Shown: positions 12,644 to 28,062 of the stretch, piece by piece | Layout of the letters: every line of letters starts with the position of its first letter | Position numbering within the stretch: the first letter of the stretch is position 1 | From: an uncultured Methanoregulaceae archaeon | GTDB taxonomy: Archaea > Halobacteriota > Methanomicrobia > Methanomicrobiales > Methanospirillaceae | Reading direction: 5' to 3' | NCBI GenBank assembly: GCA_963717525.1 | Contig: OY970343.1 | Span: forward strand, 1,504,001-1,568,000 | DNA: 64,000 nucleotides | Program-made: the position numbers and the translations under genes | The notes under the pieces: model-generated | The model's input: the letters and a program-made list of their open reading frames with translations, nothing else | The model's database searches: none | What the model was told of the DNA's origin: nothing

Positions 12644-13613
12644 CTATCCTTTTTTACCCAGAACCCGGATGATCGCATCGCCGAACTCCCGGGTCCCGGC
12701 CGATCCCCCGATGTCCCGGGTCCGGATACCGGACGAAAGAACCGTGGTGATGGCAGCCTCTAACCGGGCAGAACCTTCATTGTCCCCAAGGTAGGCGAGG
12801 AGCATCGCTGCGCTCCGCAGGGCTGCAACGGGATTTGCACTGTTTTTCCCGGCAATATCCGGGGCGCTGCCGTGGACCGGCTCAAACAAGGCATACCGGT
12901 CCCCGATATTTGCGCTCGGCACAAGACCCAAGCCCCCGACAAGGTAGGAGGAGACATCAGAGAGGATATCGCCAAAGATGTTCGTGGTCACGATCACATC
13001 GTATGCCCCGGGATGCTGGAGGATATCGAGACTGAGGGCGTCGATGAACTTGTCATTGTACAGTTACTCCGGCCTTTTTTGCCTCCTCAATACAGATATC
13101 CCGGAAGAAAACGTCGGATTTGAGCACATTTGCCTTGTGCCCGATGGTGAGTTTTCCCTGCCGCTGACGGGCACACCGGATCGCCGCCCGCGCAATTCGT
13201 TCGGTTCCTTTCCGGGTCACCACCCGGAGCGTGGTCGCACGATCAGGACCAATCTCCTCGATTCCTGAGTACAGCCCTTCGGTATTCTCCCTGACGATCA
13301 TCAGGTCAAAGCCGTCACCCCGGACCGGTCGCAGGTTTGCGAACAGGTCAAGCGCTTTCCTGATCCTCAGGACAATACTCTGGTAATCTTTCATCGGCGG
13401 AGTCGTGACCGCCCCGAAGAGGACGGCATCCGCCGTTTTGAGTTCGGAGATGTCGCCATCTGCACAGGGGCATCCGGTCTGCTCCCAGCGCCCGTACCCG
13501 ACCTCGACCGGGAAATATTCGTACTCGGGATGGAGCAGTTCGAGAGCCTGCTGCGCAACCGGGATCACCTCGTGGCCGATCCCGTCGCCTTCGACAATGG
13601 CGATCCGCGTCAT
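12644..13613 (-). CDS. aksF: (Homo)n-isocitrate dehydrogenase AksF; apparent +1 frameshift near 13064
   Basis: GDGIGHEV, LFANLRP, RENTEGLY, HKANVLK, then after one extra base DKFIDAL...TTNIFGDILSD, FEPVHGSAPDIAGK. The aksF call rather than leuB rests on operon context. Confidence 0.8.
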
Positions 13614-14410
13614 TGTGCCCTCCACCGGCTGACCAGTTCCTGCACCGAACGTGCGATCTTTGCGGGACTTGCGCCCCAGTGGACGATCGCCCCGAATTTC
13701 CCCTTCCAGGTACCTAGTCCTTCCCGTTCAGACCGGCAACACCGGGCGATAAACGGTTCTTCTGCGACCTGCTCGAGGGGACAGATGTTTTCGAGCACAA
13801 AATCCGTCCCGTAGCACTCCGTGCAGAACTGTTTTGCCGTAAGACAGCCGGCTACCCGTTCGCCACCCTGCAGGGGATCGGCATCCAGTGTCCGTGTATA
13901 CCCGGCGGCCCGGCAGGGATAGACATCGGCAGGCACCGTTGTTATATCCCGGATATGGTGATCGAATACCACCGAGAGCTCCCCGAAGAGGCCGATCGCC
14001 TCCATCTCTTTCAAAGCCGCCGACAGGGTCGGCCGGGGCGGGAGAACATCGTAGACATGTACGGTGAGGAATCCCGAAAGATCGGGATCGAGCACAAACG
14101 TCATGTTCTCCTCAAGACCCGTGAAAACAGTACACCGGCACCCACTTTCTATCGCGAGACGCACCAGCCGGGCCCGGTCGTTGAGCTGCACTTTCTCCGG
14201 GTAATGACAGGCTTCCTCTGGTGTCGCCAGTATCCTCGACGAAATGATCTCCCGCATGACGTGATTTTTTGCCGGATCAAGGGAAACTTCGAGAAGTTCG
14301 CACCCCCGGTCTGTCTCCTTCAGGAGATACCGGCTCAGGGTATAGACCCGGTCGCCGCAGGGTCTGGCGGAGGCGACCCCGACAACCTTGCAGTGTTCAG
14401 GAAAGATCAC
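13610..14410 (-). CDS. Cys-rich conserved hypothetical protein inside the aks operon
   Basis: GTG start overlaps the aksE stop and its stop overlaps the aksF start; motifs YPCRAAG, AGCLTAKQFCTECYG, NICP, ARCCRSE, VHWG. Confidence 0.75.
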   Translation of the reverse strand: MIFPEHCKVVGVASARPCGDRVYTLSRYLLKETDRGCELLEVSLDPAKNHVMREIISSRILATPEEACHYPEKVQLNDRARLVRLAIESGCRCTVFTGLEENMTFVLDPDLSGFLTVHVYDVLPPRPTLSAALKEMEAIGLFGELSVVFDHHIRDITTVPADVYPCRAAGYTRTLDADPLQGGERVAGCLTAKQFCTECYGTDFVLENICPLEQVAEEPFIARCCRSEREGLGTWKGKFGAIVHWGASPAKIARSVQELVSRWRAQ

Positions 14411-14877
14411 CGGTGAGCCCTCCAGTACTCGACAAGGCCGCCGGCGTAAAGGATCTCCTGCATACGGGGAGACAATGGGTGGATTGTATGCCGTTTCCCA
14501 CCAGTGTCTACCCAGCCACCCGACAGGTCGAATATAACCGGGCTTCCTTCTTCGCAGGCCAAGTCCGACTCGATGAGGGGGAGCCCGATATTGATCGCAT
14601 TCCGGAAGAAAATCCGTGCAAAAGACGGGGCGATGACAGCGACAACCCCGGCTTCCCGGAGGGCTAGGGCAGCCTGCTCCCTCGAAGAGCCGCACCCGAA
14701 ATTTTTACCGGCGACAATCACGGCCCCTTTGAGCCGGGGGGCAAGCGCGGGGTCGAGATCCTCCAATACGTGGGTTGTCCAGATGCTCCGGTCCTTGGTC
14801 CGCAGGTACCGGCCGGCGATGATGAGATCGGTATCAATATCCGCCGGGAGACACACGGCGGTTCCTCTGCCCTGCAT
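14407..14877 (-). CDS. aksE: Homoaconitase small subunit
   Basis: DIDTDLII, NFGCGSSREQA, SFARIFFRNAINIG. The flexible loop reads YLRT, the homoaconitase-type determinant in methanogens. Confidence 0.85.
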   Translation of the reverse strand: MQGRGTAVCLPADIDTDLIIAGRYLRTKDRSIWTTHVLEDLDPALAPRLKGAVIVAGKNFGCGSSREQAALALREAGVVAVIAPSFARIFFRNAINIGLPLIESDLACEEGSPVIFDLSGGWVDTGGKRHTIHPLSPRMQEILYAGGLVEYWRAHR

Positions 14878-16088
14878 TATCCTGCCTCCGGCGAAGCGAT
14901 CTCCCCTTCAAGGGCGCTTGCTGCAGCTGTAGCGACAGAGCCAAGATAGATCTCCCCGCCGACACCCATACGGTTCCTGAAATTCCGGTTGGCAGTCGAG
15001 AGGCAGACCTCGCCTTCCCCGAGCACACCCATATGGTACCCGAGGCAGGGGCCGCACCCGGGCGTCCCGATGCTGCACCCGCCTCCAACGATATCGGCGA
15101 GCACCCCCGTGCGGATCGCCTTTTCGAGAACCAAGGCAGACGCCGGGACGACGATGGTCCGTACGGCCACCTTCCTGCCCCTGACCATCCGGGCGAACCG
15201 GGCGAGATCAGAATACCTGCCGTTCGTGCAGGTACCAACAAAGACCTGGTCAAGCGGCAGGCCTGCAAGGGTATCCACGGGCTTGACCGTGTCCACCCGG
15301 TGGGGGATAGCAACCAGCGGCACGATGTCGGCAAGATCCAGATCGAGTTCCTGACGGTACGAACACGGTGAGGCCTCCTGAGAGGAGACCTCATGCCCGT
15401 GCTCCTTCAGGTATCTGACGGTCACATCATCTGCATAAAAGAGCCCGGCCTTTGCCCCGGCTTCGACGGAAAGATTCGAGAGGACGAGGCGTTCGTCCAT
15501 GGAGAGGTGGCGCACTCCGTCCCCCACAAACTCGAGTGCCTGGTAGGTCGCCCCGTCCATGCCGAGTTTAGCCACGTAGGCAAGCGCGAGGTCCTTTGCT
15601 TCCGCCGCCCCCGTAAACCTCCCGGCCAGGTGGATACCCAACGATTCGGGGACACGGAACCAGGTCTCCCCGGTCAGCCAGATCGCTGCCATATCGGTTG
15701 CACCCACACCGGTAGCAAACGCCCCGAACGCCCCCAGCGTGACGCTGTGCGAGTCTGCCCCGACTACTATCTCACCGGGCAGGACTACCCCCTCCCCCAT
15801 CAGCTGGTGGCAGATCCCGCAACCGACATCGGAGAACTGCATGAAGGAGCTTCTCGCAAAATCCCTCAGCTCGTGCTGGAGGGTTGCCGTTGTGCCGTTG
15901 TTGGCCGGGGCGATATGATCAAACTGGATATAATACCCGGTCTCTTCTCCCAGCCGGTCTCCTCCCATCTCTTTCCAGGCTTCCAGAGCAAGGACGCCGG
16001 TCCCATCGTGGGCATATGCCCTGTCAACCTTCCGGTCGACGTATTCCCCTGCGGTTGCGCCAAGGATACGTTCGGAGAGCGTGCTCAT
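14877..16088 (-). CDS. aksD: Homoaconitase large subunit
   Basis: HDGT, GICHQ, GADSHS, VGTCTNGR, PGCGPCLG, STANRNF.NRMG aconitase-family motifs. Confidence 0.85.
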   Translation of the reverse strand: MSTLSERILGATAGEYVDRKVDRAYAHDGTGVLALEAWKEMGGDRLGEETGYYIQFDHIAPANNGTTATLQHELRDFARSSFMQFSDVGCGICHQLMGEGVVLPGEIVVGADSHSVTLGAFGAFATGVGATDMAAIWLTGETWFRVPESLGIHLAGRFTGAAEAKDLALAYVAKLGMDGATYQALEFVGDGVRHLSMDERLVLSNLSVEAGAKAGLFYADDVTVRYLKEHGHEVSSQEASPCSYRQELDLDLADIVPLVAIPHRVDTVKPVDTLAGLPLDQVFVGTCTNGRYSDLARFARMVRGRKVAVRTIVVPASALVLEKAIRTGVLADIVGGGCSIGTPGCGPCLGYHMGVLGEGEVCLSTANRNFRNRMGVGGEIYLGSVATAAASALEGEIASPEAG

Positions 16089-17216
16089 GCCGGGGTCTCC
16101 CGTTGCGCCCGCCGGATCAGTTTCCGGAGTATCTCGGGGGTGATGCTGCATTTCTGTTCGGAATGTTCCTTGACAAGGTCGAGGACGCGGCAGATCTGGG
16201 CCCCGGAGAGATCCTCGCCCAGTGACGCGATTACGTGCTCAAGCGCCTTTCTCCCGGTGTGCTTCCCAAGGATGAAGTGACGCTCACTGCCCACCAGGTC
16301 CGGGGGGAAGTACCTGGTACGTGGCAGGGTCTTCGAGGATTGCGGCGATGTGGATGCCACTCTCGTGCGAAAAGGCGAGTTCCCCTGTGACCGGCTTGTT
16401 CTTCGGGAGCGCTATACCTGAATACTTTTCCACCTTCCGGGAGAGGGCGAAGAGGTGCGAGAGGTCATACCGGTCGATGCCGCCCTTGGTTCGCAGGATG
16501 ACCAGTACCTCTTCAAGCGAGGCATTACCCGAACGTTCGCCAATACCGTTAACGGTCGTGTGCAGCTGGAAGGCCCCGGCCTGTGCCGCTGTGATCGTGT
16601 TTGCGACAGCGCAGCCCATATCGTTGTGGCAGTGGGCGCAGAACGGCCGGTCGACAGAAGAGACAAGATCGGTCATGATCGTGCGCATCTCGTCCGGGAT
16701 CAGGCATCCCACCGTATCGGCAAAACTGAGCAGAACAGCCCCGTGGTCGGCTGCCCTCCGGTATACTTCCTTGAGAAACACAAGGTCTGTCCGTGACGCG
16801 TCCTCTGCTGCAAACCGCACGGCAACCCCGTGGTCCCGGGCAAAATCAATCATCACAAGGGCATCCTCGAGCACCTTCTCCCGGGGTTTCTTGAACTTGA
16901 CCCGGACGTGGAGATCTGAGGTCGGGATAAAGATGGAGACCATGTCGACATCGCAGTCGATTGCTGTGGTGATATCCTCTTTTTTTGCCCGGGCAAAACC
17001 GCATATCCGGGCATCAAGCCCAAGGTTTGCGATGGTTTTTACACACTGTTTCTCGTTTTCAGAGACTGCCGGGAACCCGGCCTCGATTACTTCGACGCCG
17101 ACACAATCCAGTGTCCGGGCGATATCCACCTTCTCTTCGCAGGAGAATGACACGCCGGGTGTCTGTTCCCCGTCTCTCAGCGTTACATCACAGATCTCAA
17201 TATTCCACGGTTTCAT
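16085..17216 (-). CDS. aksA: Homocitrate synthase AksA; apparent +1 frameshift near 16313
   Basis: DVTLRDGEQTPG, HCHNDMG, GIGERSGNA, FSHESGIH, then YQ/YFPPDLVG...LGKHTG. No LeuA/CimA C-terminal regulatory domain. Confidence 0.85.
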
Positions 17217-18468
17217 GGTGTGCTCCCTTGGGGCATTCCGCCTCCACGACAATGGTCTTCGGTGCATCCGGGATATGGATCACCTCGTGGAGGCGGCGTT
17301 CATCATTCGCATGACAGAGGACCGGGTCGGCCCAGCGGATGTAAGGGACCGGATCGCTCACCTTCTGACCACCGGTCATCGCGGCGCAGTGATTCTTCAT
17401 CACGATGCACAGGAGCGGGAGTCCCTTCTCATACACATCGATAAGGGCATTCAGGCCCGAGTGGAGCAGTGCGTAGTCGCCGATCAACGCCACGTGTGTG
17501 CTTCGTGCAGCGACCGCGATACTTGACCCCATACCATAGCTGGCAACACCCAGTCCATAGGGGGGTTTCAGCCCGAATACCGAGCAACCCGCGTCGCAGA
17601 TCAGGTGCATGTCCCGTCCTTTGAGGATATCCAGCAGGGGCCGGTACGGGCAGTCTAAACAGAACGTCCGGCCAAATCCCCGGTCTTTTTGTGATTCCGG
17701 CCGCCCCTGCGGTCCCGGTGGCAGGATAGCCCGGTGATCCCGGACAAAGGACCGGCCGTACTCCTTCACCTCATGGAACGGTGCAGCACGGGCCGGTACC
17801 GGGTTCACGGTCACGACCCGGGAGTCCCCCGGCGCCGGACCGGCGCCCAGGGTATCCCCCTTCCACCGGTTCAGGGGCGATGCGTCCGACCATGCAAACA
17901 TCGTCCTAGAGATCTCTGCAGCAGCAGTGACCCTGCCATGCATGGTCCAGCTCCGGTCGGCGAGTCTTCCCATACCCTCATTCCGGAGAGCCGGGATTAC
18001 CGTGACCTCAGCGTCCAGCAGCTGCGGCGTGAGCCGGAGCATAGCAACCCGGGAGAAGGTCTCCGATGCAGTCAGCGCTGCTTCAACCCCGGCAAAACAT
18101 GTGGTCTCGTCAGGTTCGATCACGGGAATCTCCGCCAGTTCCCCGTAATACCGGGAGTCCTGTGCCGTCTGGGAGCCTTTAGATTCGGGATCGTCACCGA
18201 CGACAAGAAGTACTCCACCCCGGATACCCTGCACCGTGGCCTGGACAAGCGGGTCGGCGCAGGCGTTCACGCCAACGTTTTTTATAATGACGGCAGCTCG
18301 TCTGCCGGCGAGAGAATCGCCCAGTGCATATTCGAGGGCGGTCTTTTCGTTTATGACAAACTCTGCCCGGGTTAATGTGCCAAGTTCCGTCACCGGGAAA
18401 CCCGGGACGGTATACTGCCGGTCCGTTCCGGCAGAGATCGCTGCAGCCAGCGCCCCGACTCCCTTCAT
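17197..18468 (-). CDS. ThDP-dependent enzyme, shortened IorA-like (no ferredoxin tail, no beta/gamma partner)
   Basis: VPGFPVTE, NEKTALE, K.VGVN..ADP, GDDP...SQ..QDSR, FCLDCPYR, DAGC, and GDYALLHSG...N ThDP-binding motif. Confidence 0.85.
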   Translation of the reverse strand: MKGVGALAAAISAGTDRQYTVPGFPVTELGTLTRAEFVINEKTALEYALGDSLAGRRAAVIIKNVGVNACADPLVQATVQGIRGGVLLVVGDDPESKGSQTAQDSRYYGELAEIPVIEPDETTCFAGVEAALTASETFSRVAMLRLTPQLLDAEVTVIPALRNEGMGRLADRSWTMHGRVTAAAEISRTMFAWSDASPLNRWKGDTLGAGPAPGDSRVVTVNPVPARAAPFHEVKEYGRSFVRDHRAILPPGPQGRPESQKDRGFGRTFCLDCPYRPLLDILKGRDMHLICDAGCSVFGLKPPYGLGVASYGMGSSIAVAARSTHVALIGDYALLHSGLNALIDVYEKGLPLLCIVMKNHCAAMTGGQKVSDPVPYIRWADPVLCHANDERRLHEVIHIPDAPKTIVVEAECPKGAHHETVEY

Positions 18469-19433
18469 TCATCCCTCCCGGGCACAAGATCGCAGCCTGC
18501 ACAGGTCGTGCACATGGTAAGAGCACCGGCGGTATCCAGTCCGGCACGGGCAAGGGCCTGGCGGTGTATGGCAAAGAGTTTCCTGAGCCTCCCGGCAGAT
18601 GGCCGGGGTCTCCCGGCACATCCCGCCACCGGGTTGAGCGGCCGGAGCACCGGGATCACCCCACGCGACGTGAGCCGGTTGATGCAGGCCTCCATCTCTG
18701 CATCAGTCTCTCCAAGCCCTACGATAACATTGGAAAATACCCGGCCCTTACCGAAGAGTTCCACGGACCGGTCGAGAACCCGCCACAGGCAGTCGTAGTC
18801 AAGACCCGGGCACATCTCTGCAAAGAGCTCCGGGGTGGCCGCCTCGATATTGAATTTAACCTCTGTCACACCGAGGGCATGGAGCTTATCCGGGGTCTGG
18901 TCGGTCGGGTAGATTGACACACCAATGGGCAGGCCAAAGAACTTCAGGTGACCGATGACCTCACAGACATAGGACTCCTCCTCCCCGATGCTCTCCAGGA
19001 CACCGCTCGTGAGCGATATAGCGCCGACCCGGTGCCGGACCGATTCGACGAGATCCATGATCTCCTTTACGGTTTTACGTTTACCGGCAAGCCGGGGGAC
19101 AGAGCAGTAGCGGCAGGAGAAGATGCAGCCCTCCGTAACGGTAATAAAAGCCTGGTCCGGGCAGTGAAGCCCCGGCTGGAGGAGCCGGCCCGAAATCTGC
19201 CGGTCCTCAAAAAAGAGATCGGCAACCCCGCCCCCCCGGTGGGCGATCTCAACAGGGGACGCCGGGTTGATCGCAAGCTTGACCCGGTGGCTGCCCATGG
19301 CAAAAAAGACCGAGCCTTTTCCACCAGCGCCCGGGCCTGCCGTGGATTTTGCAAGGTAATCCTCTGCTGGTTCGCCGCTGAGCCGGGCAGAGCCGGCCTC
19401 GAGCAGCCGGGCCTTCAGTTCTTCCCACTGCAT
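18465..19433 (-). CDS. Radical SAM enzyme, biotin-synthase-related, with C-terminal CxxCxxC
   Basis: GCIFSCRYC SAM cluster motif; STAGPGAG N-terminal motif; HCPDQAF; SNVIVGLGE; MCTTCAGCD. Confidence 0.9.
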   Translation of the reverse strand: MQWEELKARLLEAGSARLSGEPAEDYLAKSTAGPGAGGKGSVFFAMGSHRVKLAINPASPVEIAHRGGGVADLFFEDRQISGRLLQPGLHCPDQAFITVTEGCIFSCRYCSVPRLAGKRKTVKEIMDLVESVRHRVGAISLTSGVLESIGEEESYVCEVIGHLKFFGLPIGVSIYPTDQTPDKLHALGVTEVKFNIEAATPELFAEMCPGLDYDCLWRVLDRSVELFGKGRVFSNVIVGLGETDAEMEACINRLTSRGVIPVLRPLNPVAGCAGRPRPSAGRLRKLFAIHRQALARAGLDTAGALTMCTTCAGCDLVPGRDE

Positions 19434-20311
19434 AGTTCCAGCGCCTCCTCGTACCGGATGAAGAACGGCAGGGCAGCCACCGCCCCGGTGATCCCCCGCC
19501 CGTTCATCACAATGCGGAGATGGGGATCTTTGAGAGTCTGCACACGATCCGGAGTCACTTCCCCGCGTTTTACGTCCTTTGCGTAATCCATGAGCTCGTC
19601 TGACAAGGAAAAACCGGTATAGACAGCCATGCCGGTCTTCTCTGAAAGGGTATATTTTTTGAGCAACTCGCAAAACCGCCTAACAAGTTGTTCCGGTACT
19701 GTCGTGGCAAATTCAGCGACAAGACTCACGCAGTTCTTGGTCCGGTACGCCACCGGGAAGAGCTGGACAATCGTATGCGAGAGATAGACAGATTGTTCAT
19801 CCTCAACCGCCCTTGCGATATTGTGGACAAGTGTCCACGTCGCTCCCTCTTCTGCCGTGTCGGTATCATCCACCCCAATCAGAATCCGCTGCCGCCGGGG
19901 CAGCCAGAGCGTGGCACCTGCCACTTTCCCCCCGCCGGAAGGATCACACTGTTCCCGCAGCACACCCCGTGCGGCAGCACGGCAGGAGGTTGCACCCACG
20001 CCACCGCCACCCATACCGATGTAGGTCACCGCAATCTCATTCCTGCTTACCGAGACCCCGGAGATTCCTGCGGGGAACCGGGATCCTTCGAGCGCAAGAT
20101 CGACGGCACCGGGACGGAGCAGGTACCGGGATGTCGATCCCACGCACCTGACACTCTTCACCAGAGGGCTCTGTGCATAATGATGCTGGGTCCACATTGC
20201 GCCCCCGATACAATCGAAGAATTCGATCAGCTCGACCTGGCTCGCGGTCTCATCCGCCACCGCAACGATCCGGGGATACCGGATCACGTACGGATCAGAG
20301 ATGCTCGCCAT
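19415..20311 (-). CDS. Methanogenesis marker protein 11-like (TiaS-type GxDDTD domain), paralogue B
   Basis: IGVDDTD..EEGATW, IVQLFPV.YRTKNC, NGRGITGAVAA; Gly-rich N-domain (GMGGGGVGA.SCR). Confidence 0.8.
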   Translation of the reverse strand: MASISDPYVIRYPRIVAVADETASQVELIEFFDCIGGAMWTQHHYAQSPLVKSVRCVGSTSRYLLRPGAVDLALEGSRFPAGISGVSVSRNEIAVTYIGMGGGGVGATSCRAAARGVLREQCDPSGGGKVAGATLWLPRRQRILIGVDDTDTAEEGATWTLVHNIARAVEDEQSVYLSHTIVQLFPVAYRTKNCVSLVAEFATTVPEQLVRRFCELLKKYTLSEKTGMAVYTGFSLSDELMDYAKDVKRGEVTPDRVQTLKDPHLRIVMNGRGITGAVAALPFFIRYEEALELCSGKN

Positions 20312-21251
20312 ACAGCCCCGCCGCCTCGATTCCCCGGTCTGCCCACAGCACTGCACCGAGCGCTCCGATCCGCCCTTTCCTCCCATTATGGTCGAGATAC
20401 TCGATGCCGAGCCGCTCTGCCTCTTCCTGTGCATTTTCAACGGTAAGGATCTCCGTCTTGATGGCTTTCATGAACGGGGACTCCTGCCCGGTCCCGATAC
20501 CCCGCGAGAATGCGATGCCGGTATCCTTCGAGAAGGTATGATCTTCCACGAACGTGCAGACGAACTCACGAAGTGCACTGATGCTTTCTGGCCGGGCGGC
20601 AAAGGTGAGGGCGGAACCGACACAGTTTGTCGTTTTGCTGGGGACCGCCGGGTTGAGCTGGACAAGCCGCATGGTGAGGAACTCAACGCCTTCGATATGG
20701 CAGGCCTCCGCACATTTTAAGGCCATCACCCATGTGGCACCCTCCTGCCTTGTATCCGTATCATCGATCCCAAACGAGATCTTCTCGTACCTGGGGGATA
20801 CGATCCGGACGTGGTTGGTCCGTGCACCCCCTACCTTAAGGTCTTCTTCTGCCGGGTATTCCGCCCGGATAACCCCCGGCGCCTGAGGGAGGCATGCAGC
20901 AATACCAACACCAGCGCCAGCGATACCTGCCCATGTGGTGATCACCTCATCACCCTTCACTTCCACCGCTTCCAGTGCCTGGCCGCCGATAGTCCCCGCG
21001 GCTGCCCCGAAATTGACCGGGTGGTGGCCGAGGCGTGCCTGCATGGTCATCGAGATCCCTTCCACGGCACACGCTGCCACTGCACCACCGGCGCGGGACC
21101 GGTTCATGGCATCCCACTCAATCGTTCCCCGGGCGTGACACTGCTCAAGGATCTCGGCACGCCCTGCCCTCTCGTCAACCATCACCAGAAATTTCTTTGA
21201 GAAGAGCGGGCCGAACCGCTGCTTCACGCCATCGGGTGTAAGTATGATCAT
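20295..21251 (-). CDS. Methanogenesis marker protein 11-like (TiaS-type GxDDTD domain), paralogue A
   Basis: FGIDDTD..QEGATW, LVQLNPAVPSKTTNC, GRIGALGA; Gly-rich N-domain (GIAGAGVG.AAC). Confidence 0.8.
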   Translation of the reverse strand: MIILTPDGVKQRFGPLFSKKFLVMVDERAGRAEILEQCHARGTIEWDAMNRSRAGGAVAACAVEGISMTMQARLGHHPVNFGAAAGTIGGQALEAVEVKGDEVITTWAGIAGAGVGIAACLPQAPGVIRAEYPAEEDLKVGGARTNHVRIVSPRYEKISFGIDDTDTRQEGATWVMALKCAEACHIEGVEFLTMRLVQLNPAVPSKTTNCVGSALTFAARPESISALREFVCTFVEDHTFSKDTGIAFSRGIGTGQESPFMKAIKTEILTVENAQEEAERLGIEYLDHNGRKGRIGALGAVLWADRGIEAAGLYGEHL

Positions 21252-21341: not shown

Positions 21342-22226
21342 TTAAAGGACCTTTGCCAGTTCAATCTTGAACGGGCCAAGACTGCCGCCAAAATTACCTG
21401 CCGAGATAAACTTCACGCCCGGCACCTTGACAGCGGCCCTGATACCTGCCCCCATCGCAGCGGCAACGCTCTTCTCATCAACGCCATCGATAACGATCTC
21501 GTAGACTGCCTTGACGCCTGCCGGAACCTTGCTGTCGGGAACTTTTTCGCGGAGCGTGGGGCAGTACTTCTCGTTGGTGGAGGCGGTCATGAATTTGTAC
21601 TTCAGGCTGCCGACCTTGGAACCGCTTGCGACAATCCCGCCGGGGAAACTTGTGATAACTCCTTTCACATCGGCAATCGCGTCTGATGCTGCCTGGGCCG
21701 CCACGAGAGCTGCCATCTGGTTCTCGCCCATGATAAAGAAGTTGCCGCCGGCAACACCCTTCACGATGCCGAATTCCTCTTCCCCGACATACTCACCGTT
21801 CATGATCGGGATCGCCCAGCACTTCCTGCCGCCTACCTCTTTCTGGTACTCGTACCCGTCACCGAAGAAATGCAGTTTTACCGGGATCTTCTCCTCGGCA
21901 TCGGTGATGCCGTTGAAAACCGCTGTCGTAGGTGCCGTCAGCACGCACTCGGCGAGGCGTTCCACGACCTGCTCCTTGAGTTTCTTCTTGCTGGCGCAGA
22001 TGAGGATTGCAACGCCCGGCCTGCCGTCAGGTGTCTCGCTGCCGGGAAGAACACACTCGATGCCCGCTTCACAGGGGCAGCCGATCGCAGAGGTTGCAAA
22101 CCCGGTTGCCTCGGTTGCTGACTTGAGTGCCCAGTCTTTTGTCACTGCGGTGATGATCACCCGGCAGACCCAGGTTGGGAATGCCTCCGCATAGGTGTTG
22201 TCAATTGTTACGCCGTTGACTTCCAT
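21342..22226 (-). CDS. ftr: Formylmethanofuran:tetrahydromethanopterin formyltransferase
   Basis: [65 protein letters not shown]. Confidence 0.97.
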
Positions 22227-22494
22227 ACTAACATAACCTCAGGTATACCAACAGTACCATTATTATTACTGAATAAATTTTCTCATTTGATCGCATATTC
22301 TGAGAGCGCACCAGAATATCGTCAAAAAGTATAACACATATGATTGACATGCCCCGGGAGCATATAAACAAAAATTAAAAAAAATTAATAAAATGGCCGG
22401 GTTACATCGATATATTTCAGAACATTTATCTACATACTTTTACCACTCTTTTGATAATCGATTCTGAAATCGATCATAGCTGGTGCGTGAACCC

Positions 22495-22761
22495 ATGGCA
22501 TTTGCAGTGCAGATCAATCCCGTCCATTGCACCGGCTGTAGCAATTGTGTTGTTGCATGTCTTGTGGACGCGCTGGAACTTCACACGGTAGTTCCGGAGT
22601 CAACCGAAAATATCTGCACAGCCCGGGATACTGAACCGAAGGTCACGGGCTTCAAAGATGAGCTCCCTGCCGGGGGCAGTGTATGCGTCCAGATGTGTCC
22701 GCATGATAGTATCAGGCTGACAGGGCCCTGGGAAACCAGAGCAGAGGCAAAGGTGCAATAG
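22495..22761 (+). CDS. fwdG: FwdG/FmdG-like ferredoxin with a degenerate second cluster motif
   Basis: CTGCSNCVVAC first motif; second reads PAGGSVCVQMCP; sits directly before fwdF. Confidence 0.75.
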   Translation: MAFAVQINPVHCTGCSNCVVACLVDALELHTVVPESTENICTARDTEPKVTGFKDELPAGGSVCVQMCPHDSIRLTGPWETRAEAKVQ

Positions 22762-22784
22762 AGGAACAGCGTGAGGGTTATTTC

Positions 22785-23957
22785 ATGGCATTATTTCCAA
22801 AGTTTTCCAAAAAGAGGGATGGTGTCAACGTTGTGATGGAGCAGCGCCTCCTTCAGAACGTGAACAACCTGATTCTGAATTCAGAGACCTGCACGGGATG
22901 CGGTATCTGTGTCGAGTCCTGTCCGGAGGATGCAATAGTCCTCGGACTTGTCGGTGCAGCCCGCCGCGGTGCCATCAACTACGCGACGCCTATCGATGTT
23001 GACGAGACCAAGTGCTCGTACTGCGGTGTCTGCGTGATCATGTGCCCGTTCAATGCATTGACTCTGAAAGTCGACAATCAGGAGCGGCTTCCCATTATTG
23101 AAAAAGAGGGATTCCCGCAGTATGACATGAAGGCAGAGATCAATGACGAAAAGTGCGTAAAGTGCACGATCTGCGAAGAGGTCTGCCCGCGTGACGCAAT
23201 CGACCGGAATGTCCCCGCATATGCAGGGACGTACAAGGGACCGGTTGCCGGGGCAAAGGATCGCCAGGCCGCGATCACGACAAAGACCACCTTCACCGTC
23301 GACAAGGAGAAATGCTCCCTGTGCGGCATCTGCGGTGCGCTCTGTCCTGCCATCAGGGTCAAGCACAAAGAATTTACTGCCGAAGCAGGGAAAGTTGAGG
23401 GTGATGTGATCTGGGACGAGACCAAGTGCGACGCCTGCAAGGTGTGCGTAGAAGCCTGCCCCGAGGAATGCATTACCATCGAACGCGAAGTCATATCCGA
23501 CAAGGTAGATGGCAAGGTCAGCATTGTCCAGGACAACTGCTGCACATGTACCTGGTGCTCGCGCAACTGCCCGACCGAGGCAATTACCGTTGAGAAGATC
23601 TTCGAAGGCGACATCGAATTCCACGCCGAAAAGTGTCCCGGCGGCTGTTCGACCTGCGCCGATATCTGCCCGGCAAATGCAATCTATCTTCCGAGCGAGA
23701 AGCCGGCAGCAGACATGAAAGGCGAGATCGAGCCCAGCATTGCCGTCAACAAGGACTACTGCATTCTCTGTGGTGCCTGCGTGAATGCCTGCCCCGGTGA
23801 AGATATCATCATCCTCCAGCGGACCGGCATCCGGATGAAAGGAACGGAGACGGACCTCTTCAAGAAGATCAAGGAGAAACTCTTTGCGAAGAGAACCTCG
23901 AAGGTGAAGGAAGGCATTGCCGGACAGGTCGGACTAAAAATGATGGAGAAGGCGTGA
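22785..23957 (+). CDS. fwdF: Formylmethanofuran dehydrogenase polyferredoxin subunit F
   Basis: Eight CxxCxxCxxxCP-type motifs; precedes hdrCBA. Confidence 0.9.
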   Translation: MALFPKFSKKRDGVNVVMEQRLLQNVNNLILNSETCTGCGICVESCPEDAIVLGLVGAARRGAINYATPIDVDETKCSYCGVCVIMCPFNALTLKVDNQERLPIIEKEGFPQYDMKAEINDEKCVKCTICEEVCPRDAIDRNVPAYAGTYKGPVAGAKDRQAAITTKTTFTVDKEKCSLCGICGALCPAIRVKHKEFTAEAGKVEGDVIWDETKCDACKVCVEACPEECITIEREVISDKVDGKVSIVQDNCCTCTWCSRNCPTEAITVEKIFEGDIEFHAEKCPGGCSTCADICPANAIYLPSEKPAADMKGEIEPSIAVNKDYCILCGACVNACPGEDIIILQRTGIRMKGTETDLFKKIKEKLFAKRTSKVKEGIAGQVGLKMMEKA

Positions 23958-23969
23958 GGGAGGACGAAC

Positions 23970-24551
23970 ATGGCAAGATCAAAAGGTTACCCGGAAGCGC
24001 TGGAGAAAAAACTCCACGATCAGCGGTTTTACCGTGAGGATTCTACACCCGACTTCACAAAAAAGGTCGAGGCATCTTCACGCACCATTGCCCACATGTG
24101 CTACCAGTGCGGTACCTGCACCGGATCGTGCCCGTCAGCACCCCGGAGCACCTACCGCATCCGCAAGTTCATGCGGAGAGCAGTCCTTGGGCTCGAGAAT
24201 GAGGCTCTCACCGATCCCGATCTCTGGCTCTGCACCACCTGTTACAGCTGCACCGACCGGTGCCCGCGTGACATCGCACCCACCGACGTTATTATGTCCA
24301 TGAGGAACATGGCATTCACCCGCGATATCATACCGGTGAACTTCCTCAAGACCGTGCAGGCGATCTACAGCTCCGGCCACGGTGTGCCCAATAACGATGT
24401 CAACCGTGCAGCCCGGGAGAGGCTCGGACTCACCCGCGACCCGCCGACCACCCACATGTATCCTGAATACATGCCGGCGATCAGGAAGATCATCGACCAC
24501 TACAACCTCAAGGCAAATGCCGACAGGATTGTCAAGGAACGGGAGGGATAA
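23970..24551 (+). CDS. hdrC: Heterodisulfide reductase subunit C
   Basis: CYQCGTCTGSCPS and LWLCTTCYSCTDRCPR. Confidence 0.96.
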   Translation: MARSKGYPEALEKKLHDQRFYREDSTPDFTKKVEASSRTIAHMCYQCGTCTGSCPSAPRSTYRIRKFMRRAVLGLENEALTDPDLWLCTTCYSCTDRCPRDIAPTDVIMSMRNMAFTRDIIPVNFLKTVQAIYSSGHGVPNNDVNRAARERLGLTRDPPTTHMYPEYMPAIRKIIDHYNLKANADRIVKEREG

Positions 24552-24557
24552 GGGAAC

Positions 24558-25481
24558 ATGTCAGAATCCAAAGCAAACCACACGTTCGCGTTATACCTTG
24601 GCTGCATTGCACCGAACCGGTACCCGGGCGTGGAATCTGCAACCATCAAGGGATGCAAGAAACTGGGCGTTGATCTTGTTCCCCTCAAGGGAGCAAGCTG
24701 CTGCCCGGCCCCCGGTGCATTCGGTTCCATCGACCTGAACGTCTTCTATGCAATGGCAGCACGCAACCTTGTGCTCGCCGAGCAGATGAAGACCGATATC
24801 GCCCTTGTCTGCAACGGCTGCTACAAGTCGATCTGGGAAGTCAACCACAAGCTCAAGCACAACCAGGATCTCCGCGATGGCGTCAACGAAGTACTCAAGG
24901 AAGTTGACATGGAGTTCAAGGGCACCATCAATGTCTATCACGTGGCGGAACTCCTCTATAATGAGAAATTCATAGGGGTCGATAAAGTCAAGGACTCCGT
25001 CGTCAACCCCCTGACCGGTGCACGCATTGCCGTCCACTACGGCTGCCACCTGACTAAGCCCCATAAGGACCGTGAGTTCGAAAAGGAGGTCATGTTAAAC
25101 ACCGAGCACCCGACCTGGATGGAAGAACTGGTCGCAGCCCTCGGTGCCACGCCGGTCGAGTACCGCAACAAGATGCAGTGCTGCGGTGCCGGCGGCGGTG
25201 TCCGCGGGTACGACATCGTCCACTCGCTGGATATAACGAACGAGAAGCTGATCAACCTCAAAGAGGAAAAGGTGGATGCGCTGACCGACATCTGCCCGTT
25301 CTGCCAGCTCCAGTTCGACCGCGGCCAGATCGAGATCAAGGAAAAGTTCGGTGTCGAGTACAACTTACCGGTGCTGCACTTTGCCGAGCTGCTCGGGCTG
25401 GCACAGGGAATGAGCCCGCAGGAACTCGGGCTTGACCTGCACGGGATCAGCTGCGAACCGTTCCTGCAGAAGGTGCTGTGA
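24558..25481 (+). CDS. hdrB: Heterodisulfide reductase subunit B
   Basis: Two CCG domains: LGC...SCCPAPG...CNGC and HYGCH...QCCGAGGG...CPFCQLQFD. Confidence 0.96.
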   Translation: MSESKANHTFALYLGCIAPNRYPGVESATIKGCKKLGVDLVPLKGASCCPAPGAFGSIDLNVFYAMAARNLVLAEQMKTDIALVCNGCYKSIWEVNHKLKHNQDLRDGVNEVLKEVDMEFKGTINVYHVAELLYNEKFIGVDKVKDSVVNPLTGARIAVHYGCHLTKPHKDREFEKEVMLNTEHPTWMEELVAALGATPVEYRNKMQCCGAGGGVRGYDIVHSLDITNEKLINLKEEKVDALTDICPFCQLQFDRGQIEIKEKFGVEYNLPVLHFAELLGLAQGMSPQELGLDLHGISCEPFLQKVL

Positions 25482-25491
25482 GGTGGGGAAG

Positions 25492-27642
25492 ATGGTTGAA
25501 AAGAAGAAAACAACTACCAAAAAGACCGAGACCAAGAAGCAGGACACAAAAAAGGAGGCTCCCGTGAAACAGGAAGTCAAAAAACAAGCTCCCGCACCGG
25601 CAGCAAAGGCAGTCGCAGCACCCGGCGCCACCACCAAGCAGGAAGCCCGGATCGGTGTCTTCATCTGCCATTGCGGTACCAACATCGCCGGTTCAATGAA
25701 TATCCCGGCCGTGCAGGAATATGCAAAAACCATCCCGAATGTGGCCTATGTTGACAACTACAAGTATATGTGCTCGATGCCCGGGCAGACGGTGATTAAC
25801 AAGGCAATCAAGGACAACAAGCTGACCGGTGTCGTTGTTGCCGCTTGTTCCCCGCGCCTCCACGAGCCGACATTCAGGACCGCCACCAAAGAGGGTGGCC
25901 TCAACCCGTTCCGGTTCGAGATGGCAAACATCCGTGAGCAGAACTCATGGGTGCATATGCATGACAATGCAGGGTCAACCGACAAAGCAAAGGACGCAAT
26001 CAGGATCGCCGTTGCAAAGGCGTCACTCCTCCAGGACCTCTTCCCGAAAACCGTGCCGGTCGAGAAGGCCGCGATGGTAGTCGGAGCCGGTGTTGCCGGC
26101 ATGCAGGCAGCCCTTGACCTTGCAGCATCAGGAATCAAGACCTATCTCATCGAATCAACGCCAAGTATCGGCGGCAGGATGTCCCAGCTCGACAAGACCT
26201 TCCCGACGCTTGACTGTTCCCAGTGTATCCTCACACCGAAGATGGTGGATGTAGGGCGGAGCAAGGATATCGAGCTCCTGACCTATTCCGAAGTCGATAA
26301 CGTGGAAGGCTATATCGGCAACTTCGATGTCACCATCCGCAAGAAAGCGCGTGGTGTCCTCACTCCCGCAGAAGCGGAAGCCCGTGGGATTGTCGGCGGC
26401 GGCTGTAACGGCTGCGGTGACTGCGAGACAATCTGCCCGGTCATCAAGCCCAATGTGTTCGAAGTCGGGATGAAGCCCCGGAAGGCTATTTATATCAACC
26501 ACCCGCAGGTTGTTCCCCTTATCTACACGATTGACTTTGATTCCTGTATCAAGTGTGGACTGTGCGTGACCGCATGTGGTCCCGAAAAGAAGGCAATCGA
26601 CCTCGAATCAAAGGACGAGTTCATGAAAGTCAAAGTCGGGACGGCAATCCTCGCCACCGGCTACGATATCTTCCCCATCGAGAAAAAAGAAGAATGGGGA
26701 TACAAGCGGTTCGAGAACGTTATCACCAGTCTCGAATTCGAGCGGCTCATCTGCGCATCCGGCCCGACCGGCGGTTACCCTGTCCGCCCGAGTGATGGTG
26801 AGAAACCAAAAAGAGTCGCATTCGTGCTCTGTGCCGGCTCTCGTGACAATACGGGTGTCGGCAAACCCTACTGTTCACGGTTCTGCTGCATGTATTCACT
26901 GAAACATGCCCACCAGCTTGTTGAAAAGATGCCCGGCTGCGTTCCCTATATCTTCTACATGGATATCCGGTCATTCGGCAAGGCGTACGAGGAGTTCTAC
27001 TACCGTATCCAGGATGAAGGCGCGAAGTTCATCCGCGGCCGGGTCGCAAACATCCTCGAGGACCCCAAGACCAAGAACCTCCATGTCTATGCCGACGACA
27101 CCCTGCTCGACCGCCCGGTCGATATGGAAGTCGATCTTGTCGTGCTCGCAGCAGCAATCCAGCCCGCGAGCGACACGGAAAGGACACGGAGACTTTTCGG
27201 TGTTTCCTGTACTGGCGACGGCTGGCTCCAGGAAGCCCACCCGAAACTGAACCCATGCGGAACCACCACGGCCGGTGTCTTCCTTGCCGGTGTCTGCCAG
27301 GGCCCGAAGGATATCCCGGACACGGTAGCATCTGCCGAAGGCGCAGCATCTGCGGCAAGCATCCCGATCCACAAGGGAGAAGTCGAACTCGAGCCGTACT
27401 TCGCTACCTGTATAGAAGAGAAATGTGCAGGCTGCGGCATGTGCGTGAACCTCTGCCCCTACAGTGCCCTTTCTCTCGTAGAGAAGGACGGACGACAGGT
27501 CATGCAGGTCACCGAGGCCAAATGTAAGGGCTGTGGTACCTGCGGCGGTTTCTGTCCCGGTGGCGCAATCTGGATGAACCACTTTGCAACCCCGCAGATC
27601 GTTGCCCAGATCGATGCGTTCCTGCTCGGGGGTGAGCAGTAA
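25492..27642 (+). CDS. hdrA: Heterodisulfide reductase subunit A with Lys-rich N-terminal extension
   Basis: IGVFICHCGTNIAG, ACSPRLHE.TF, NIREQ.SWVH, GAGVAG (FAD), KTFPTLDCSQC, CSRFCCMY, C-terminal ferredoxin domain. Confidence 0.97.
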   Translation: MVEKKKTTTKKTETKKQDTKKEAPVKQEVKKQAPAPAAKAVAAPGATTKQEARIGVFICHCGTNIAGSMNIPAVQEYAKTIPNVAYVDNYKYMCSMPGQTVINKAIKDNKLTGVVVAACSPRLHEPTFRTATKEGGLNPFRFEMANIREQNSWVHMHDNAGSTDKAKDAIRIAVAKASLLQDLFPKTVPVEKAAMVVGAGVAGMQAALDLAASGIKTYLIESTPSIGGRMSQLDKTFPTLDCSQCILTPKMVDVGRSKDIELLTYSEVDNVEGYIGNFDVTIRKKARGVLTPAEAEARGIVGGGCNGCGDCETICPVIKPNVFEVGMKPRKAIYINHPQVVPLIYTIDFDSCIKCGLCVTACGPEKKAIDLESKDEFMKVKVGTAILATGYDIFPIEKKEEWGYKRFENVITSLEFERLICASGPTGGYPVRPSDGEKPKRVAFVLCAGSRDNTGVGKPYCSRFCCMYSLKHAHQLVEKMPGCVPYIFYMDIRSFGKAYEEFYYRIQDEGAKFIRGRVANILEDPKTKNLHVYADDTLLDRPVDMEVDLVVLAAAIQPASDTERTRRLFGVSCTGDGWLQEAHPKLNPCGTTTAGVFLAGVCQGPKDIPDTVASAEGAASAASIPIHKGEVELEPYFATCIEEKCAGCGMCVNLCPYSALSLVEKDGRQVMQVTEAKCKGCGTCGGFCPGGAIWMNHFATPQIVAQIDAFLLGGEQ

Positions 27643-28062
27643 ATGTCTGACGAGTGGAAACCCAAGATCCTCGGCATGGTCTGCAACTGGTGTTCCTATG
27701 CAGGGGCCGACCTCGCCGGCGGCGGTCGTATCCAGTACCCCCCGGACATCAGGATTGTCCGTGTGATGTGCACCGGCCGTCTTGACTCCCTTTTCGTCCT
27801 CAAGGCGTTTGCCGATGGGGCGGATGGAGTCCTCATCTCCGGGTGTCACTTCGGGGACTGCCACTACCTTGAAGGTAACTACAAGGCAGCAAAGAGAATG
27901 TTCATGGTCAAGAGACTCATGAAGAGCATCGGCCTCGACGACCGGCGGTTCCGGATGACGTTTGTCTCTGCATCAGAAGGTGCAAAATGGGCAAAAGTCG
28001 TAACAAACGTCGTTGACACCGTAAAAGAACTCGGGCCGAGCCCGCTTACGGAAAACAAGTGA
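27643..28062 (+). CDS. mvhD: MvhD [2Fe-2S] subunit
   Basis: CNWCSYAGADLAG, RVMCTGR, GADGV..SGCHFGDCHY.EGN, SASEG. Confidence 0.96.
   Translation: MSDEWKPKILGMVCNWCSYAGADLAGGGRIQYPPDIRIVRVMCTGRLDSLFVLKAFADGADGVLISGCHFGDCHYLEGNYKAAKRMFMVKRLMKSIGLDDRRFRMTFVSASEGAKWAKVVTNVVDTVKELGPSPLTENK

Follow-up and report, generated by a model that had tools for sequence, protein, structure and literature searches.

Which enzyme takes the carbon chain of coenzyme B beyond 2-oxosuberate? Coenzyme B is required by methyl-coenzyme M reductase, and so for biological methane formation and anaerobic methane oxidation. AksA, AksDE and AksF extend 2-oxoglutarate three times to give 2-oxosuberate. Section 14.5 of PMC3087415 assigns enzymes only to this point, i.e. 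the three Aks activities, and PMC12068725 describes the route to coenzyme B as not yet known. The question is raised by a 64,000-nucleotide stretch of contig OY970343.1 (positions 1,504,001 to 1,568,000, forward strand; assembly GCA_963717525.1) from an uncultured Methanoregulaceae archaeon, hereafter the window, in which a gene for a protein resembling thiamine diphosphate (ThDP) enzymes overlaps aksA.

We propose that this ThDP protein is a 2-oxosuberate decarboxylase that would supply 7-oxoheptanoate for coenzyme B by plain decarboxylation, a reading to which we give a probability of roughly 60%. That its substrate is the end product of the Aks pathway appears likely. The link to this pathway had been suggested by an earlier reading of the bare sequence (the sequence-only reading), and as a genomic inference it is borne out by the gene neighbourhood, by joint presence and loss with aksA and aksD, by a separate branch in the IorA tree and by re-use in a biotin operon.

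A shortened IorA-like protein encoded beside aksA

The ThDP gene begins with an ATG codon in the open reading frame list and has the following features.

17197..18468, minus strand: ThDP-dependent enzyme of 423 amino acids, IorA-derived, without ferredoxin domain and with shortened middle domain; candidate 2-oxosuberate decarboxylase
18331..18351, minus strand: NEKTALE, residues 40-46, containing E41 (motif search and alignment)
17650..17661, minus strand: C270-x-x-C273 within FCLDCP (residues 269-274), first two predicted ligands of a proximal [4Fe-4S] site
17584..17595, minus strand: DAGC, residues 292-295, with C295 as third predicted cluster ligand
17392..17481, minus strand: GD (330-331)...N359, predicted diphosphate/Mg-binding motif; GDYALLHSG spans residues 330-338
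17233..17235, minus strand: C412, fourth predicted cluster ligand (alignment)

The sequence-only reading had described this frame with NEKTALE, FCxxCP, DAGC and GDYALLHSG..N, all of which we located; it had overlooked C412. It was also right that the ferredoxin domain is missing, as the protein has no CxxCxxC motif versus two in the same genome's canonical IorA, that no iorB is adjacent, as the genome's iorB adjoins canonical iorA about 75 kb away, and that the stop overlaps the start of aksA, by 17 bases. Its term 'stand-alone' understates the setting, since the gene is the fourth in a conserved nine-gene run. Its start overlaps the stop of the upstream radical S-adenosylmethionine (radical SAM) gene by 4 bases.

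E41 is presumably the ThDP-activating glutamate. N359 and C412 are invariant in 26/26 aligned homologues, as are all four cluster cysteines (C270, C273, C295, C412) in the alignment of 26 mainstream homologues. The chain ends 11 residues past C412, and a Pfam scan matched only the C-terminal ThDP domain.

The closest relatives of the protein are Methanoregula records. Compared with one relative (L001; such labels are our own), the codons show 102 synonymous and 53 non-synonymous differences. Contigs from all four public runs, two of them possibly the source of this same DNA, contain no indel inside the gene. Considering this and the synonymous excess, we conclude that the gene is real, and the codon comparison indicates that it is under purifying selection. 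A metagenome scan listed 80 loci for the protein, with 39-94% identity to the query. At rank 8 in the ESM Atlas, a mostly bacterial 386-amino-acid cluster, most commonly from Ignavibacteriota, scores 0.93 to the query. Counts from a sigma-70 promoter and terminator scan, a model ill-suited to archaea, were close to shuffled levels. A look for RNA among the sequencing runs found none listed.

Relationship to IorA and to other ThDP enzymes

Database sources label the homologues 'indolepyruvate ferredoxin oxidoreductase alpha', the name of IorA (TIGR03336). Like IorA, the ThDP protein has pyrimidine-binding (PYR), middle and diphosphate-binding (PP) domains in one chain, the NEK, K63, QDSR, GD...N and TGxQ motifs and four proximal-cluster cysteines. 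It differs in lacking the C-terminal 2x[4Fe-4S] domain, in its shorter middle domain and in changed pocket columns, while the gene differs in having an aks/mmp11 context, no iorB neighbour and a separate tree branch. Against the NCBIfam IorA model the protein scores 144.3 bits, below the cut-off of 650.9, versus 834.6 bits for the genome's canonical IorA (590 amino acids), which passes. Over two blocks, the ThDP protein and this canonical IorA are about 30% identical.

The sequence-only reading had suggested building a tree. In ours (47 rows, LG+G4), a 100/97 branch separates the query group from canonical IorA. The group consists of the query, proteins of about 500 amino acids from other methanogen families, one Halorutilales protein, Bacillota proteins and one further row; the tree leaves the branching order within it open, and the Methanomicrobiales branch is long. 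On the canonical side of the 100/97 branch there are also several other IorA-like proteins without ferredoxin domain. Such a loss is frequent among IorA-like proteins generally and, taken alone, is not what sets the ThDP lineage apart. A 496-amino-acid ferredoxin-less protein of genome G230 was considered as a group member and rejected, as it falls outside the query group. In columns fixed in IorA (Y21, Y296 and M313 in 14/14, H367 in 13/14), the query group has V, S, L and G instead. A basic residue occupies position 179 in 12/12 Methanomicrobiales proteins and 96% of 23 other group members, versus 36% of IorA; one guess is that R179 might anchor a distal carboxylate.

Could the gene nevertheless encode a further IorA, one that relies on the distant IorB to oxidise aromatic or branched 2-oxoacids? 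IorA is the nearest named family, the database names agree and the genome does have an IorB. However, that iorB is already paired with its own iorA, and no IorB match better than E 1e-4 was found in four of five tested carriers of the ThDP gene (G228, G027, G030 and G196; the fifth, G005, has one). Together with the low model score, the separate branch, the replaced pocket residues and a distribution that tracks the aks genes (see below), this makes a second IorA very improbable. By these sequence criteria, the ThDP protein belongs to a separate IorA-derived lineage and is not the genome's IorA.

The AlphaFold model of the ThDP protein has a predicted local distance difference test score of 89. 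Residues 1-249 find their best match in oxidoreductase domains I-II (Z 23.1, root-mean-square deviation 2.9 over 244 residues), and the chain as a whole resembles single-chain ThDP enzymes (Foldseek E 5e-15, template modelling score 0.58; VIA Z 24-27 over about 330 residues). Such matches to a model reveal fold and domain order, not reaction or mechanism. A sequence search of solved structures with the single protein gave nothing under E 0.07, and a profile search gave weak matches only, short ones where the single-chain ThDP decarboxylase family (PDC, AHAS, OXC, HACL) is concerned. The top structure matches, pyruvate decarboxylase, oxalyl-CoA decarboxylase, 2-hydroxyacyl-CoA lyase and MenD, share the PYR-middle-PP fold in one chain, but at 10-17% identity, and the middle part of the ThDP protein aligns with oxidoreductase domain II. 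The two-subunit 2-oxoacid:ferredoxin oxidoreductases and oxalate oxidoreductase resemble it in domain folds (6n2n, 5b47, 5b48, 5c4i) and in a single proximal cluster site, whereas their domain III, the coenzyme A (CoA)-binding part, is absent from the ThDP protein and its loci.

Linkage to and co-distribution with the aks genes

The run in the window reads mmp11, mmp11, radical SAM, ThDP, aksA, aksD, aksE, DUF7714, aksF. Besides the ThDP gene it comprises the following.

20295..21251, minus strand: second Mmp11 paralogue, 185 bits, under the cut-off
19415..20362, minus strand: methanogenesis marker protein 11 (TIGR03280, 334 bits over a cut-off of 256), with TiaS-like catalytic domains
18465..19439, minus strand: radical SAM protein with sub-cut-off matches to the variant_rSAM, LipS2 and MSMEG_0568 models
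16085..17213, minus strand: aksA, short homocitrate-synthase type, with one extra base near 16314
14877..16082, minus strand: aksD, homoaconitase large subunit
14407..14877, minus strand: aksE, homoaconitase small subunit
13610..14410, minus strand: DUF7714 protein, with five invariant cysteines and a full-length XcbA-family match below the cut-off
12644..13613, minus strand: aksF, homoisocitrate dehydrogenase, with an extra base at 13062

Because contigs of all four public runs lack both extra bases, the frameshifts in aksA and aksF are assembly errors and the operon is intact; operon decay was rejected on these grounds. A separate leu-type set, including a leuC-type paralogue of aksD, lies elsewhere in the genome. 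We discarded the idea that the aks genes serve lysine synthesis, since lysA is present in five of five genomes tested.

The core order was kept in 43/43 loci of a first set, which includes the window's own locus and some repeated records. A second, more diverse set of 43 loci comprised 16 from Methanomicrobiales and 27 from seven other families. All 16 Methanomicrobiales loci have aksA within 2 kb, while the 27 others have aksA in 12, mmp11 in 18 and either gene in 26, so that one of the two lies within 2 kb in 42 of the 43. No iorB was found at any of these 43 loci. Canonical iorA has iorB within 300 bases in 13 of 14 cases, and aksA or mmp11 within 2 kb in none of the 14. Source labels place some homologues in Methanosarcina, Methanolapillus, Ca. 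Methanoperedens and ANME-2.

Presence and absence follow the same pattern. Among 151 Methanomicrobiales genomes, 137 have the ThDP gene and 136 have aksD; both occur in 134, neither in 12 and only one in five, all five being fragmented metagenome-assembled genomes (MAGs) of 170-260 contigs. Both genes are missing from 7 of the 21 genomes of genus g19. Two genomes (G189 and G294, 99% and 97% complete) lack the ThDP gene and aksD while keeping the row mmp11-mmp11-radical SAM-DUF7714; G294 has no short AksA, and the short synthase of G189 adjoins nifH-nifD. The two g19 genomes inspected (L189:2832-5659, L190:1685-5325) retain mmp11, radical SAM and DUF7714, which suggests uptake of a chain precursor.

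We also queried a phylum panel of 80 genomes, hand-picked to cover families. Short AksA was counted at 299 bits or more in a frame of up to 430 amino acids, with a nif-linked copy dropped and 29 weaker matches unlisted. All 24 carriers of the ThDP gene have short AksA, four genomes have AksA alone and 52 have neither. Our genome panels cover the window's phylum; methanogens beyond it were sought through searches with two homologues, which turned up none. Taken together, these comparisons indicate that the ThDP gene is linked to and co-distributed with the aks genes across families. In family f36 (L225:4902-10307, L226:6473-12578), a short synthase paralogue directly precedes a complete iorA-iorB pair, and a PaaK-like CoA ligase is close by; this may be a further module that couples elongation to decarboxylation.

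Re-use in a biotin operon

Among 201 Halobacteria genomes, the ThDP gene was found only in G030 and G196. Within G030 it closes a same-strand run (L169:8803-18728), bioB-bioW-bioU-bioF-bioD-aksA-aksD-aksE-aksF-ThDP, and its protein is 99% identical to a protein in a cluster labelled Halorutilales. BioB, BioW, BioF and BioD pass their cut-offs, BioU falls below and aksE was read by eye from motifs. G196 has the aks-ThDP part, after which the contig ends. We did not find mcrA, mmp11 or DUF7714 in either genome; lysA is present in both. In G030, but not in G196, a TnpB gene (L169:7349-8647) is the tail-to-tail neighbour of the ThDP gene.

Biotin needs pimelate, a C7 chain, and BioW uses free pimelate. 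For this reason, loss of C1 from 2-oxosuberate is the simplest reading of the G030 run, which would independently indicate that a C8 2-oxoacid is shortened to a C7 chain. In this Halorutilales-type haloarchaeon the module would feed biotin, the aldehyde being converted to pimelate and passed to BioW, and the run suggests a possible 2-oxoacid-elongation route to pimelate in a non-methanogenic haloarchaeon.

One could ask whether the protein serves biotin in the methanogen as well, as a source of pimeloyl groups, or backs up sulfopyruvate decarboxylase in coenzyme M synthesis. A homologue does sit in a biotin operon, and sulfopyruvate decarboxylation is the same type of reaction. However, bioF, bioU, bioW and bioB were not found in the window's genome (87% complete), bioD over the cut-off was found in none of 39 methanogen carriers, and the ComDE slot is already filled by a fused ComDE that passes the TIGR03845 and TIGR03846 cut-offs beside cysteate synthase. 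We therefore give either role hardly any credence. The cysteate synthase reads in two frames before the fused comDE (L261:869-3252), probably through an assembly error.

Cysteine loss and the question of redox chemistry

The Halorutilales protein lacks all four cluster cysteines, and so do four Bacillota-type proteins (P0170, P0178, P0182, P0185), three of which are labelled Mechercharimyces, Marininema or Paenibacillus. In these four, RRTG replaces MTGG; a plasmid search for the context of the cysteine-free Bacillota proteins returned distant IorA-like matches only. Among methanogens, two of the four cysteines are gone in 3/3 genomes of genus g171 and at least one in 2/7 genomes of genus g174, and the genomes with these copies still have genes for short AksA and AksD-like proteins. 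Cysteine-poor copies in general retain the ThDP motifs, except for changes after GD in the Halorutilales and Bacillota proteins.

Since the cluster cysteines have been lost repeatedly and some carriers have no IorB, a non-redox reaction is favoured. Thus, of the two chemistries offered by the sequence-only reading, the non-oxidative one is preferred. A branch leading to a pimeloyl thioester for biotin does not fit the methanogens. The proximal [4Fe-4S] site kept in most methanogens is probably a structural relic.

A redox reaction on 2-oxosuberate would look different: the kept cluster would oxidise the enamine, or an electrophilic sulfur would be attacked, free of CoA and IorB, and the resulting pimeloyl thioester, thioacid or free pimelate would be reduced to the thiol by later enzymes. 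As the cysteines are invariant in 26/26 mainstream homologues, which suggests a working cluster, such chemistry stays open. Two-subunit oxidoreductases operate with one proximal cluster and an external ferredoxin, and oxalate oxidoreductase is not known to need CoA; BioW in the Halorutilales run requires free pimelate, and the radical SAM neighbour has a weak LipS2 match. Conversely, the cysteines have been fully or partly lost on three or more separate branches, including those of two methanogen genera, a CoA-binding IorB-type partner is found at 0/43 loci, and a carbon would be oxidised only to be reduced again for coenzyme B. On balance, we consider a redox reaction unlikely.

The proposed reaction and the points against it

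In plain decarboxylation, the ThDP ylide would add to C2 of 2-oxosuberate, C1 would leave as CO2 and the enamine would be protonated. The 7-oxoheptanoate released would be the aldehyde precursor of the 7-mercaptoheptanoyl arm of coenzyme B. In labelling work by White, the thiol carbon of 7-mercaptoheptanoate was reportedly C2 of 2-oxosuberate, and the step is said to have been likened to sulfopyruvate decarboxylation. ComDE of coenzyme M synthesis offers an analogy, as ThDP-dependent C1 removal from an anionic 2-oxoacid gives an aldehyde and later a coenzyme thiol, and the lineage probably works like ComDE on a longer substrate. In contrast, ComDE is not known to have a middle domain or cluster site, and the ThDP protein has no match to TIGR03845 or TIGR03846 at E 0.001. 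Its relationships indicate that the lineage descends from IorA, with loss of the ferredoxin domain and of the need for IorB.

Within the Aks-linked module, the ThDP protein might instead catalyse another step or use another substrate: it could act on a C6 or C7 2-oxo-diacid, perform a carboligation or, together with Mmp11 and the radical SAM protein, help to make some other sulfur cofactor. Outside Methanomicrobiales the mmp11 neighbour is commoner than aksA (18/27 versus 12/27), the Mmp11-radical SAM pair also occurs in genomes without mcrA and so is not tied to coenzyme B alone, and sequence cannot tell chain length. Yet the C7 chain of biotin is obtainable only from a C8 2-oxoacid, mmp11 is absent from the Halorutilales carriers, and G189 and G294 have lost the ThDP gene together with aks while keeping mmp11 and radical SAM. 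Another step or substrate thus seems improbable.

Several observations weigh against plain decarboxylation of 2-oxosuberate for coenzyme B, the invariant cysteines of the mainstream homologues among them. The biotin link comes from one genome, G030, since the G196 contig stops partway through the run; we recognised no gene for an aldehyde dehydrogenase within the G030 run, and an oxidative reaction could also yield free pimelate. Neither aks nor mmp11 adjoins the cysteine-poor methanogen copies, and the genomes that carry these copies have IorB. The four panel genomes with short AksA alone, all fragmented MAGs of 190-350 contigs, lack the ThDP gene. So do 19 of 41 mcrA genomes (22 carry it), and the gene is therefore not the sole route to coenzyme B; 16 of these 19 also lack short AksA. 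Finally, loss affects neighbouring genes jointly and related genomes do not count as independent cases, so the co-loss counts are suggestive, and to take them as statistical proof would overstate them.

Neighbouring proteins and their possible part in the back half of coenzyme B synthesis

DUF7714 proteins have five invariant cysteines and an HWG motif. In 4/4 proteins scanned they match the XcbA family over the full length (E 1e-12 to 9e-27), at 48-94 bits against a cut-off of 150. TiaS, which Mmp11 resembles in its catalytic domains, activates a carbonyl at the expense of ATP. DUF7714 occurs in 28 of the 80 panel genomes, 22 of them carriers of the ThDP gene, and was not found in the M. jannaschii control. 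Its model (predicted local distance difference test score 86) has no Foldseek match at E 0.001 and a best VIA Z of 7.3, to common alpha/beta folds, and its ESM Atlas scores are all below 0.8. According to PMC9457059, XcbA, which belongs to bacterial coenzyme M synthesis, is a [2Fe-2S] protein and forms the thiol, coenzyme M, by reducing a thioaldehyde; DUF7714 is like it in the full-length profile match and unlike it in the sub-cut-off score and the lack of a solved-structure match. PMC12068725 suggests MMP16 or L-ASST for the aldehyde-to-thiol step; no MMP16 match over the cut-off was found in the window's genome.

A route from aldehyde to thiol through DUF7714 and the TiaS-like Mmp11 is speculative. 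A bolder reading, which we think less likely than not, is that the nine-gene run accounts for most of the later steps towards coenzyme B: the ThDP protein would make 7-oxoheptanoate, Mmp11 would use ATP to exchange the carbonyl oxygen for sulfur with help from the radical SAM protein, DUF7714 would reduce the thioaldehyde to 7-mercaptoheptanoate, and threonine might be attached or phosphorylated by the second Mmp11. A complex prediction for the ThDP protein and Mmp11 (alignments A1, A2) scored 0.00 and counts neither way. Pairs of mmp11 and a radical SAM gene were found in three genomes without mcrA and one with mcrA, the radical SAM protein being MSMEG_0568-like in the three scanned, at these loci.

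L196:6623-8594, mmp11-radical SAM pair
L197:6591-8612, mmp11-radical SAM pair
L198:4359-6400, mmp11-radical SAM pair
L199:7566-9573, mmp11-radical SAM pair

Elsewhere in the window's genome lies a third, longer Mmp11 paralogue of 389 amino acids (L058:8790-9959). The interval 21342-28062 of the window contains ftr, just upstream of the run on the same strand, and divergent genes that look by eye like polyferredoxin and heterodisulfide reductase subunits.

Significance

Our literature search found no earlier assignment of the ThDP gene, although an earlier proposal is possible in subscription journals or supplementary marker tables. The accessible parts of PMC4153887 and PMC11176372 contain nothing on it, and the word 'biotin' is absent from the main text of PMC10134839. 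A ThDP protein without an assigned role in Methanococci is described in PMC3787637 and PMC5311999 and is possibly the counterpart there.

The comparisons above point to a real, conserved and misnamed enzyme lineage, whose recognition corrects a widespread database name. It provides a specific, testable candidate for the step after 2-oxosuberate: Methanosarcina, where deletions are routine, has an orthologue, and a cysteine-free homologue should be easier to assay. It is also a case of a ferredoxin oxidoreductase subunit shedding its redox parts, and a possible anti-methane target. If the proposals hold, a methanogenesis marker and a domain of unknown function would each gain a role, an oxidoreductase subunit would prove to have become a decarboxylase, and a haloarchaeon would have a 2-oxoacid-elongation route to biotin. 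From this genomic evidence, the ThDP gene probably performs the CO2-removing step of the coenzyme B chain in many methane-making archaea.

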